A DNA stretch of 29,462 nucleotides. Source: Pedosphaera sp. GTDB lineage: Bacteria; Verrucomicrobiota; Verrucomicrobiia; Limisphaerales; SIBH01. The stretch lies in NCBI GenBank assembly GCA_031411375.1, contig JANOAY010000173.1, positions 1 through 29,462 on the forward strand, in the 5' to 3' direction. Below the pieces are notes generated by a model. That model had not been told where the DNA came from and did no database searches. It saw nothing but the letters and a program-made list of their open reading frames with translations. A program made the translations under genes and the position numbers. The first letter of the stretch is position 1. The number at the start of each line of letters is the position of its first letter. Of the stretch, positions 14,298-16,700 are shown one piece after another.

Positions 14298-16700
14298 ATG
14301 AACCGCGCCCGCGCAACTTCCGTGGCAGCGTCTCGCCAGGACGCCGCGTCCGGGCTTGTCACTTTCGTCCTTCTCGCCGCCGCCGTCGCGCTCCACGCCC
14401 AAGGCTCCAAGGCCGACTACGACCGCGCCGCGAATCTCTCGCGCCAGTTTTCCGGCCAAGTGTTCCGCGACCGCGTGCAGGCGAACTGGGAGGCAGGCAA
14501 CACCTCGTTCTGGTACGAGGTCAAAACCGCGCGCGACGCCAGCGAGTTCATTTGGATCAATGCGGAAACAGGCGAGCGGAAGAAACTCGACCGCGCGCCG
14601 GATGGCCGCACGACTAATTCCGCCAGCGGCGCATTACGCGCCAACAACCGCACCGGCTCCGACACGTCGCTCACCTTCATCAACCGCACGCCCGGCGAGG
14701 TGGAAATCTTCTGGCTCAACGACGGCCAGCGTCAGAGCTACGGCAAGATCTCGGCTGGCGCCCAGCGTGAGCAGCACACGTTCGCGGGCCACGCGTGGGT
14801 CGCCGTGGATGCCGCGGGCAAGACGCTCGGGACCTTCGAAGGCCAGGAGAAAGCCAGCGACGCCATCATCACCACCAACGCTGCCACCACCGGACGCCTG
14901 CGCGGCACTCGCGGCGGAGGAGCAGGCGCGGCCCCGCGTCCGCAGGCGCGCGACATTTCACCCGATGGCAAATGGCGCGCGCTGATCAAGGACTTCAACG
15001 TCGTGCTGAAGGAAGTTTCGTCCGGCGAAGAAACCGTGCTGACCAAGGACGGCAAGGAGGACGACGCCTACCGTGATCGTTTCTACTGGTCGCCGGACTC
15101 GAAGCACTTCGTCGCCGTGCGCGTGGAGAAGGGGCAGGAACACAAGGTGAGCATAGTCGAGTCGTCGCCCAAGGATCAGGTGCAGCCCAAGCTCGTCACG
15201 TTTGATTACTACAAGCCCGGCGACAAACTGCCGCACCCGCGCCCCGCGCTCTTCGAGGTCGCGGCGAAGAAGCAGATTCCCGTGAGCGATGAACTGTTCC
15301 CGAATCCGTTCACCGAGAGCGGCAGCATGGACATCCGCTGGGAGAAGGATTCGTCGCGCTTCACGTTTCGTCACAATCAGCGCGGCCACCAAGTGCTCCG
15401 CATCGTGGCGGTGGATGCCAAGACCGGCGAGGCCCGCGCCATCGTGGACGAACAGAGCAAGACGTTCATTGAATACAGCGGGAAGAACTTCCTCGAATGG
15501 CTCGACGACACAGGCGAGTTGATCTGGATGAGCGAGCGCGACGGCTGGTGCCATCTCTATCTCTACGATGCGAAGACCGGCCACGTGAAAAACCAGATCA
15601 CCAAAGGCGAGTGGGTCGTGCGCGGCGTGGATCGCGTGGACAAGGAGAAGCGGCAGATTTGGTTTCGGGCGGGCGGCATTCATCCGGGGCAAGACGCGTA
15701 TTTCATCCACTACTGCCGCGTGAACTTTGACGGCACCGGCCTGACGCTGCTCACCGAGGGAGACGGCTCGCACACGGTTGATTTCTCACCCGACCGCCGG
15801 TTCATCGTGGACAGCTACACGCGCGTGGACATGCCAGCGGTCACGGAATTGCGCCGCGTCGCCGACGGCAAACTCGTGACCAAACTCGAAACTGCGGACA
15901 TGACCGCGCTGTTGAAAGAAGGCTGGCGAGCGCCTGAGCGCTTCGTGGCCAAGGCCCGTGATGGCGAGACCGACATCTACGGCGTCATCGTGCGCCCGAC
16001 CAATTTCGACCCGGCGAAAAAGTATCCCGTCATCGAGAACATCTACGCCGGCCCGCAAGGCTCGTTCACGCCCAAGACCTTCAGCGCCGTGCCGCGCATG
16101 GCCGAACTGGCCGAACTTGGCTTCATCGTCGTGCAAATGGATGGCCTGGGCACCAGCCATCGCTCGAAGAAATTTCACGACGTGTGCTGGAAGAATGTCG
16201 GCGACGCGGGCTTTCCGGATCGCATGCTCTGGATCAAAGCCGCCGCCGCAAAATATCCCGAAATGGACATCACGCGCGTCGGCATTTACGGCACGAGCGC
16301 CGGCGGGCAGAACGCGCTTGGCGGCCTGCTCACGCATCCCGAGTTCTACAAAGCCGGCGTCTCCGACTGCGGCTGCCACGACAACCGCATGGACAAAATC
16401 TGGTGGAACGAACAGTGGATGGGCTGGCCTATCGAGAAGCACTACGACGAACAGAGCAACGTGACCCTCGCGAAAAATCTCCAAGGCAAGCTCCTGCTCA
16501 TGGTCGGCGAGCTGGACAAGAACGTCGATCCCGCGAGCACGATGCAGGTCTGCAATGCGCTCATCAAAGCCGGGAAGGATTACGAGCTTCTCGTTGTCCC
16601 CGGTGCAGGCCACGGCGTCGCGGGCAGCCCCTACGGCAAGCGTCGCTTGCAGGATTTCTTCGTGCGTGCGCTGCACGGGAAGGAGCCGCGGTGGAACTGA
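14298..16700 (+). CDS. Secreted S9 (dipeptidyl peptidase IV-like) serine peptidase with an inserted VHL-like beta domain
   Basis: Hydrophobic signal. DPPIV_N propeller. Catalytic GTSAGG (Ser), ELDKNVD (Asp), GAGHG (His). Residues about 113-191 align by eye to the human VHL beta domain. Confidence 0.9.
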   Translation: MNRARATSVAASRQDAASGLVTFVLLAAAVALHAQGSKADYDRAANLSRQFSGQVFRDRVQANWEAGNTSFWYEVKTARDASEFIWINAETGERKKLDRAPDGRTTNSASGALRANNRTGSDTSLTFINRTPGEVEIFWLNDGQRQSYGKISAGAQREQHTFAGHAWVAVDAAGKTLGTFEGQEKASDAIITTNAATTGRLRGTRGGGAGAAPRPQARDISPDGKWRALIKDFNVVLKEVSSGEETVLTKDGKEDDAYRDRFYWSPDSKHFVAVRVEKGQEHKVSIVESSPKDQVQPKLVTFDYYKPGDKLPHPRPALFEVAAKKQIPVSDELFPNPFTESGSMDIRWEKDSSRFTFRHNQRGHQVLRIVAVDAKTGEARAIVDEQSKTFIEYSGKNFLEWLDDTGELIWMSERDGWCHLYLYDAKTGHVKNQITKGEWVVRGVDRVDKEKRQIWFRAGGIHPGQDAYFIHYCRVNFDGTGLTLLTEGDGSHTVDFSPDRRFIVDSYTRVDMPAVTELRRVADGKLVTKLETADMTALLKEGWRAPERFVAKARDGETDIYGVIVRPTNFDPAKKYPVIENIYAGPQGSFTPKTFSAVPRMAELAELGFIVVQMDGLGTSHRSKKFHDVCWKNVGDAGFPDRMLWIKAAAAKYPEMDITRVGIYGTSAGGQNALGGLLTHPEFYKAGVSDCGCHDNRMDKIWWNEQWMGWPIEKHYDEQSNVTLAKNLQGKLLLMVGELDKNVDPASTMQVCNALIKAGKDYELLVVPGAGHGVAGSPYGKRRLQDFFVRALHGKEPRWN

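Follow-up and report, generated by a model that had tools for sequence, protein, structure and literature searches.

A 29,462-nucleotide stretch of DNA from Pedosphaera sp. (Verrucomicrobiota; contig JANOAY010000173.1 of assembly GCA_031411375.1), which we call the window and whose positions serve as coordinates throughout, carries a gene (14298..16700, + strand) for an S9B (dipeptidyl peptidase IV (DPP-IV)-like) peptidase with an inserted VHL beta domain. The domain of this 800-residue protein, P0001, is homologous to that of human pVHL, and it keeps the residues with which pVHL holds trans-4-hydroxyproline (Hyp). On balance we lean toward the idea, drawn from sequence and gene context, that the inserted domain is a tethered Hyp-peptide-binding module that would target an exported post-Pro/Hyp peptidase to Hyp-rich substrates and thereby feed Hyp catabolism.

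The first-pass annotation of this DNA had proposed a VHL-like domain at 14634-14870; these positions are residues 113-191 in the translation of the open reading frame (ORF), and all of the residues that it named are in place. The Pfam VHL beta family (PF01847) matches residues 123-173 of P0001 with 30.8 bits against a curated cut-off of 21 (E 3e-7), and it scores 35 bits in a scan of the organism's own genome. A phmmer search with residues 95-200 against all PDB sequences returned pVHL chains only (E 1.1e-5). When 129 bacterial copies were made into a profile and compared with the PDB, pVHL was found at E 8e-14 and no other credible match was seen; thus there is no solved structure for any bacterial member. 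The AlphaFold2 (AF2) model of the domain alone has seven strands and a predicted local distance difference test score (pLDDT) of 89.4, and the top 50 Foldseek matches of this model in the PDB are all pVHL (TMq 0.69-0.84, root-mean-square deviation 1.6-4.8 Å, 25-31% identity). From the combined Pfam, phmmer, AF2, Foldseek and profile evidence we place the seven-strand sandwich at residues 112-192 (14631..14873, + strand). Chance resemblance to pVHL is ruled out by the Pfam, phmmer, Foldseek and bacterial-profile matches, and the P0001 domain is a true VHL beta homologue.

None of the 12 Pfam families reported for P0001 at E values up to 1 is the VHL alpha domain, and a linker and the peptidase's propeller come next; this excludes P0001 as an orthologue of pVHL and as an E3 adaptor. 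It shares with the pVHL beta domain (PF01847; structures 1LM8, 1LQB, 4AJY and 7CJB) the seven-strand sandwich, a pocket of the form W/Y/(H)/S-or-T/H/W, and the flanking contacts F76/F127, R69/R118, R107/R157 and Y112/F162 (pVHL/P0001). It differs from pVHL in lacking the alpha domain and BC box, and hence an elongin-C/cullin adaptor function; in being apparently exported, whereas pVHL is cytosolic; in having its domain inserted in an enzyme; and in three positions, with T for S111, a deletion of the HIF-specific contact F91, and A169 for the core residue F119. Its presumed ligand would be Hyp in dietary peptides and not a regulated hydroxylation mark. It could be argued that the domain nonetheless serves to bring in another protein, whether as an adaptor or to inhibit or regulate the peptidase, with no link to nutrient acquisition, since pVHL is itself an adaptor (a substrate receptor) and since Mestre et al. 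2020 (PMC7736814) speculated on recruitment by prokaryotic VHL domains that, in retron systems, are joined to IHF-like proteins. We regard this as highly improbable for P0001, in which a propeller rather than a VHL alpha domain and BC box follows the beta domain, the protein looks exported and the gene context is catabolic.

In pVHL the Hyp site consists of Trp88, Tyr98, His110, Ser111, His115 and Trp117; the Hyp hydroxyl bonds to Ser111 and His115, its carbonyl to Tyr98 and its amide to the backbone of His110 (PMC9528729). The HMMER (phmmer) alignment pairs all six with residues of P0001, namely W139/W88, Y148/Y98, H160/H110, T161/S111, H165/H115 and W167/W117 (P0001/human pVHL), and the change of S111 to T161 keeps the hydroxyl. 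Their codons lie within 14712..14798 on the + strand (W139 at 14712-14, Y148 at 14739-41, H160 at 14775-77, T161 at 14778-80, H165 at 14790-92 and W167 at 14796-98). In this alignment one residue is missing at VHL F91 and two are inserted near the N-terminus; it essentially reproduces, gap included, the one that had been made by eye in the first-pass annotation.

The pocket is kept among relatives as well. In 45 S9 relatives that are 60-87% identical to P0001 overall, eight of the 81 domain columns are invariant and five of these are W139, Y148, T161, H165 and W167 (hypergeometric P 1.3e-5, which like the other conservation statistics is only indicative, the sequences being related to one another). 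The wider set comprised 274 bacterial VHL copies from 150 cluster representatives of many architectures, and here too all five residues are within the eight most conserved columns, which are N129 (98%), W167 (95%), W139 (94%), T161 (93%, with Ser in another 5%), H165 (93%), G143 (92%), F127 (82%) and Y148 (81%). H160 is conserved in only 35% of these copies, and its pVHL counterpart makes its contact via the backbone. A caveat raised at the outset was that such residues may be conserved family-wide for structural reasons. They are indeed a signature of the family across the 274 copies, but their losses are correlated: 216, 41 and 17 copies keep five, four, and three or fewer of the pocket residues, respectively, where 199, 67 and 8 would be expected under independent loss, and the pocket-degenerate copies still have N129, G143 and F127, which are fold residues. 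Because the pocket residues are lost jointly while the fold residues stay, the pattern favors conservation as a ligand site and weakens an explanation by fold alone.

The host of the domain is a DPP-IV-like S9B peptidase, in line with the DPP-IV-like S9 enzyme that had been proposed from the sequence. P0001 begins with a probable signal peptide (residues 1-36, 14298..14405, + strand) whose hydrophobic helix spans residues 9-31, both in the sequence and in the AF2 model, and which ends ...ALHAQG/SK; the AQGS motif after the helix is kept in the 45 relatives, so that the protein looks exported, with the cleavage site placed by inference from the sequence. The DPP-IV-type beta-propeller (DPPIV_N, residues 216-513, 14943..15836, + strand, also seen as strands in the model) scores 143 bits in Pfam, and the S9 alpha/beta-hydrolase catalytic domain (Peptidase_S9, residues 601-792, 16098..16673, + strand) scores 153 bits. 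The catalytic triad is intact: S667 (in GTSAGG), D740 and H772 align to S613, D689 and H721 of Pseudoxanthomonas dipeptidyl aminopeptidase IV (PmDAP IV, 5YP1) and are invariant in the relatives. The full-length AF2 model (pLDDT 82.6) has its nearest Foldseek neighbors in the P. gingivalis prolyl tripeptidyl aminopeptidase and bacterial DPP4s (2D5L, 2ECF, 5YP1 and 7Y4G; E about 1e-38), and P0001 shares the eight-bladed propeller, alpha/beta hydrolase and triad of the S9B peptidases of P. gingivalis (2D5L), Pseudoxanthomonas (PmDAP IV, 5YP1) and S. maltophilia (DAP IV, 2ECF), which are its best matches by sequence (E about 1e-48) as well as by fold. Residues 36-110 gave only noise when matched by sequence to solved DPP-IVs.

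Unlike these enzymes, P0001 has the VHL insert, no aligned double-Glu helix, and a different S1 lining, with A668, C693, N696, D699 and W703 in place of N, V, W, Y and Y. The PmDAP IV S1 residues are N614, V639, W642, Y645, Y649 and V692 (PMC5807507), and the last of these aligns with V743 of P0001. The aligned positions fall inside an invariant motif (CHDNRMDKIWWNE; C693-H-D-N-R-M-D699 in P0001), and the family has an invariant motif of its own when set against known S9B peptidases (GCHDNRMDKIWWNE). To judge from these residues the S1 lining may be more polar and roomier than that of a classical DPP-IV, and it would suit a hydroxylated ring. S. maltophilia DAP IV accepts 4-Hyp at P1 according to work by Nakajima (2008) as cited in PMC5807507.

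In the AF2 model the VHL sandwich (strands 122-191) stands after three N-terminal strands of the propeller region and ahead of the propeller bulk, between two linkers (residues 104-119 and 195-213) whose pLDDT is below 50; this low confidence suggests that the domain is tethered rather than packed against the enzyme. The position might instead be thought to fit a ligand-free structural insert, either an oligomerization surface or a lid or gate that covers the mouth of the propeller, with the conserved residues needed for its folding or its packing on the peptidase. The insert does sit between the first propeller strands and the rest, and PmDAP IV has a substrate-contacting loop between its blades 1 and 2 (PMC5807507); VHL-less relatives occupy the same operons; and W117 and F76, though not the other pocket residues, are part of a stabilizing "aromatic tetrahedron" in the pVHL core (PMC3688787). 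Against this, F119 of the tetrahedron is not conserved (A169), the linkers point to tethering, the pocket is lost jointly while the fold residues stay, and the pocket residues are also conserved where no propeller is present, in stand-alone proteins, tandem arrays of up to 12 copies and unrelated fusions. The same study treats Y98 as a contact residue and finds the modeled structure of the Y98H mutant virtually wild type, although all four mutants that were tested had reduced stability and function, so that a role of Y98 in folding is not cleanly dismissed (PMC3688787). Overall we judge a purely structural role to be quite unlikely.

Known clusters for trans-4-hydroxy-L-proline, such as hyp of S. 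meliloti and lhp of P. aeruginosa and P. putida, hold an epimerase, a D-Hyp dehydrogenase, a pyrroline-4-hydroxy-2-carboxylate (Pyr4H2C) deaminase, an alpha-ketoglutarate semialdehyde (KGSA) dehydrogenase and the AraC-type regulator LhpR, and in model organisms they pair these enzymes with amino-acid ABC importers. The window similarly brings together an epimerase candidate, a DAO-type dehydrogenase, a dihydrodipicolinate synthase (DHDPS)-family enzyme and an AraC-type regulator, so the Hyp-catabolic locus that had been claimed for this DNA is borne out at the level of candidate genes. The 4-hydroxyproline 2-epimerase candidate (proline racemase family; 22792..23715, + strand) scores 336 bits in Pfam; its best NCBIfam models are the 4-hydroxyproline epimerase equivalogs, and its 427 bits fall narrowly short of their cut-offs (442 and 450), with the racemase and dehydratase models scoring far lower. 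The DHDPS-family enzyme (19183..20148, + strand; Pfam, NCBIfam), which scores 175 bits with the NCBIfam dapA model (cut-off 206), is a candidate Pyr4H2C deaminase, and an FAD-dependent D-amino-acid dehydrogenase family gene (28555..29460, + strand; Pfam DAO and an NCBIfam D-amino acid dehydrogenase subfamily), truncated where the contig stops, is a candidate D-hydroxyproline dehydrogenase. No KGSA dehydrogenase gene was found in the window before the contig end. A PAS-AraC regulator gene (13410..14243, - strand; Pfam, tblastn layouts) lies upstream of the peptidase gene and is divergent from it.

Unlike the known clusters, the window and its relatives also hold exported peptidases (S9-VHL and Pro-Pro endopeptidase (PPEP)-like), a prolyl isomerase, a family 39 glycoside hydrolase (GH39) and sulfatases. 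The GH39 gene (17483..19189, + strand; Pfam) lies between the peptidase and DHDPS-like genes, and two sulfatase genes (24776-26191 and 27133-28545, + strand) are interleaved with the Hyp genes. About 2.5 kb separates the peptidase gene from the first of the candidate Hyp genes, with GH39 and a UPF0175/DUF3368 (PIN-like) toxin-antitoxin-like pair (16711..17588, - strand; Pfam) in between, the latter directly 3' of the peptidase stop codon. A related locus whose peptidase is 87% identical (L020) has no toxin-antitoxin pair, insertion sequence (IS) element or sulfatases, as DNA alignment with the window showed for the pair, and there GH39 and then the DHDPS-like gene come directly after the peptidase stop codon. 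Since L020 lacks the inserted elements, the ancestral arrangement was tighter than that in the window. Sulfatase genes were also seen to flank related Hyp/peptidase loci (L041, L051, L054 and L101).

We then have the question of whether this association extends beyond one contig. The neighborhoods of 80 loci of the S9 peptidase family, taken from one-genome-per-species contigs and laid out by tblastn, were scored as linked when a 4-Hyp epimerase homologue was within 10 kb of the S9 gene. Such a homologue (59-89% identity) was present in 11 of the 80 loci, or about 14%; DHDPS-like genes were found in 11, DAO dehydrogenase genes in 8 and homologues of the PAS-AraC regulator in 9. Each of five linked genomes, of 4.2-8.7 Mb, has one full-length epimerase copy, and with a single copy in genomes of this size chance alone would give only about 0.3 linked loci. 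In L035, L051 and L054 the peptidase gene stands between the epimerase and dehydrogenase genes on one strand with short gaps, and in L060 it follows the epimerase gene, with the dehydrogenase gene about 1.8 kb further on. On the family tree the linked members fall in at least seven separately supported places and come from Verrucomicrobiota, Planctomycetota, Armatimonadota and Acidobacteriota; inheritance of the linkage as one block is ruled out by the at least seven changes that the tree requires. The peptidase family is thus enriched near Hyp epimerase genes in several clades and phyla (11 of 80 against about 0.3), but this enrichment is not specific to VHL: the insert is present in 57-58 of the 80 family members, and epimerase linkage is seen in 9 of 57 VHL-bearing members and in 2 of the 23 that lack the insert, on which ground a dependence of Hyp linkage on VHL was rejected. 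The Hyp-gene linkage of the peptidase family is real but partial.

A second proline-directed enzyme recurs in these neighborhoods. P0271 of the window (20757..22289, + strand, 510 codons; Pfam and profile versus PDB) joins an M34/PPEP-like HEFSH zinc domain (residues ~65-335) to a cyclophilin (343-505); its N-terminal 60 residues and true start codon are doubtful. As a single sequence the zinc domain matched nothing in the PDB, whereas a 13-sequence profile of it found PPEP-1/Zmp1 at E 5e-4 and, in addition, the catalytic domain of anthrax lethal factor. P0271 has the HExxH...E signature of PPEP-1/Zmp1 and lethal factor (MEROPS M34); it differs in that the likeness is weak and confined to the zinc site, and in that its domain is fused to cyclophilin and, elsewhere, to VHL copies or S9. 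This protease-isomerase fusion for X-Pro bonds appears to be uncharacterized. Six of the 150 VHL representatives have a PPEP-like domain fused to 2-3 VHL copies, most of which carry a W-Y-x-T-H-W pattern; in L023, L032, L036 and L071 a PPEP-like domain is either fused to S9 or encoded next to it; and PPEP-like genes belong to the Hyp operons of L035, L054 and L100 and are found near the epimerase locus of L092. Because of these fusions and loci we recognize a recurring network of genes and domains, in which two proline-directed peptidase families that are unrelated to each other occur with the VHL fold, a prolyl isomerase and the Hyp pathway. In two Planctomycetota (L023 9128-12220 and L032 3031-6306, + strand) the PPEP-like zinc domain and S9 are in one open frame, apparently as a fusion of two peptidases.

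When 1.84 billion cluster representatives were searched exhaustively with HMMER, 1277 proteins proved to have the VHL domain. Besides stand-alone proteins there are tandem arrays of up to 12 copies and fusions to other enzymes, and the commonest catalytic partners identified are S9B and PPEP-like domains, both proline-directed peptidases. Among these proteins are giants of 1700-3300 residues with 9-12 tandem VHL beta domains (P0121-P0126 and P0131), and in one protein, P0139, VHL and a PPEP-like domain occur together with DM9 and ankyrin repeats.

If the VHL domain of P0001 does bind Hyp, the following scheme might be envisaged. The aromatic cage of W139, Y148 and W167 and the hydroxyl-binding pair T161 and H165 would hold trans-4-hydroxyproline as in pVHL, docking the enzyme on Hyp peptides of collagen-like proteins or of plant or algal Hyp-rich glycoproteins and raising the local substrate concentration. 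The catalytic domain could then cut after Pro or Hyp, and the products would enter the neighboring pathway, made up of the 4-Hyp epimerase, the D-Hyp dehydrogenase and the DHDPS-like deaminase. This pathway may be controlled by the divergently encoded PAS-AraC regulator, which has homologues at related clusters, and the PPEP-like/cyclophilin enzyme, together with the putatively glycan-stripping GH39 and sulfatases, might assist.

A number of observations weigh against this scheme. In the window the opposite-strand toxin-antitoxin pair parts the peptidase gene from the Hyp genes, and among relatives the linkage is limited to 11 of 80 loci and is found with and without VHL (9/57 and 2/23). Of 34 genomes with an unlinked VHL-S9 gene, 17 have the epimerase at another site, and in the other 17 nothing scores above the Pfam cut-off for it. 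VHL was present in nine of 151 genomes drawn evenly from the phylum, the organism's own and eight others; of these eight, two have a proline-racemase-family gene over the Pfam cut-off, on a different contig from VHL in both, and six lack an epimerase over that cut-off. A strict functional coupling of VHL to the epimerase is made less likely by the many VHL-bearing genomes without one. The PmDAP IV helix that contains E208-E209, the double-Glu helix that fixes the substrate N-terminus (PMC5807507), falls in a gap of the sequence alignment with P0001. To these may be added the core-packing role of W117 and F76 in pVHL described above (PMC3688787), the fusion of VHL folds to sulfatases, SASA esterases, lipases and leucine-rich repeats (LRRs), which could mean that the fold has another ligand, and the degenerate pockets of two VHL copies at Hyp loci. 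One of these copies is a C-terminal VHL-fold domain (43.6 bits) of a Pirellulaceae sulfatase (L101 13939-15711, - strand) with W changed to R and H to E, encoded about 2.5 kb downstream of a DAO-type dehydrogenase gene and 3.4 kb from a Hyp epimerase gene; the other is in the L054 zinc peptidase, with Y changed to N and W to F. When the comparison was reversed, 19 epimerase loci from genomes whose sampled S9 gene is unlinked contained one other S9 family gene, three PPEP-like genes and one sulfatase bearing a degenerate VHL copy.

Several of these same points would be accommodated if the VHL sandwich bound something other than Hyp, either a glycan or glycopeptide of Hyp-rich or mucin-like glycoproteins or an unmodified proline-rich (polyproline II) peptide, so that the link to Hyp genes is indirect. 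The fold is fused in bacteria of the Planctomycetes-Verrucomicrobia-Chlamydiae (PVC) group to sulfatases, sialate-type acetylesterases, a lipase and LRRs; GH39 and two sulfatases are encoded in the window locus; many VHL-bearing genomes have no Hyp epimerase; and sugar-binding sites, too, typically combine an aromatic cage with a polar floor. On the other hand, the conserved set is exactly that of pVHL's contacts with the Hyp ring and hydroxyl, the commonest catalytic partners are the proline-directed S9B and PPEP-like peptidases, and the sulfatase and esterase fusions seen in the Atlas are leads without alignments, the sole sulfatase copy that was examined being degenerate in its pocket. We consider a different ligand unlikely, if less so than a structural insert, and retain the Hyp-binding module as the reading that we prefer.

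More tentatively, and with clearly less confidence than for P0001 itself, it is possible that the VHL sandwich is an old bacterial extracellular Hyp-binding module, carried by several enzyme classes (S9B, PPEP-like and perhaps esterases and sulfatases) and by tandem arrays, with which PVC-group and other bacteria would forage on collagen-like proteins and Hyp-rich glycoproteins; pVHL would then be a later recruitment of a ready-made pocket. The oxygen-sensing literature treats pVHL as an animal invention, and one evolutionary survey (PMC9618697) treats VHL as metazoan and cites reports that HIF, PHD and VHL are absent from choanoflagellates and other protists. Thousands of metagenomic proteins already have Pfam annotations that show the VHL-peptidase architecture. 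On the VHL domains of prokaryotes the literature searched yielded a single statement, that their function is unknown (PMC7736814), and no paper on VHL-peptidase fusions or on a bacterial Hyp reader was found there. An intact pocket in proline-directed peptidases of Hyp-degrading operons provides a concrete and cheaply testable hypothesis for bacterial VHL function, and a plausible pre-metazoan use for the Hyp pocket. If Hyp is indeed bound, these domains would be a new class of substrate-targeting module, for the degradation of protein and not of carbohydrate; they would point to an uncharacterized means, in Verrucomicrobia and Planctomycetes of soil and water, of harvesting collagen or the Hyp-rich glycoproteins of plants and algae; and they could supply small, stable Hyp-binding scaffolds, perhaps addressable by existing VHL ligands.

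The organism's own genome has one 2-oxoglutarate (2OG)-Fe(II) oxygenase gene, which is unlinked to the locus and uninformative; a hint from the Atlas is a diatom 2OG-Fe(II) oxygenase with a VHL-like fold. The remaining genes of the window include an IS200/IS605-type Y1 transposase (20314-20760, + strand) between the DHDPS-like and zinc-peptidase/cyclophilin genes, a small dual-specificity/protein tyrosine phosphatase (PTP)-like phosphatase (22286-22798, + strand) that overlaps the start of the epimerase gene, and OsmC-like and GNAT genes downstream of the epimerase candidate. Upstream, and unrelated to the finding, are genes for a CotH kinase-like protein with a lamin-tail domain (7084-9363, - strand) and a NAGPA-type phosphodiester glycosidase (10146-12056, - strand).

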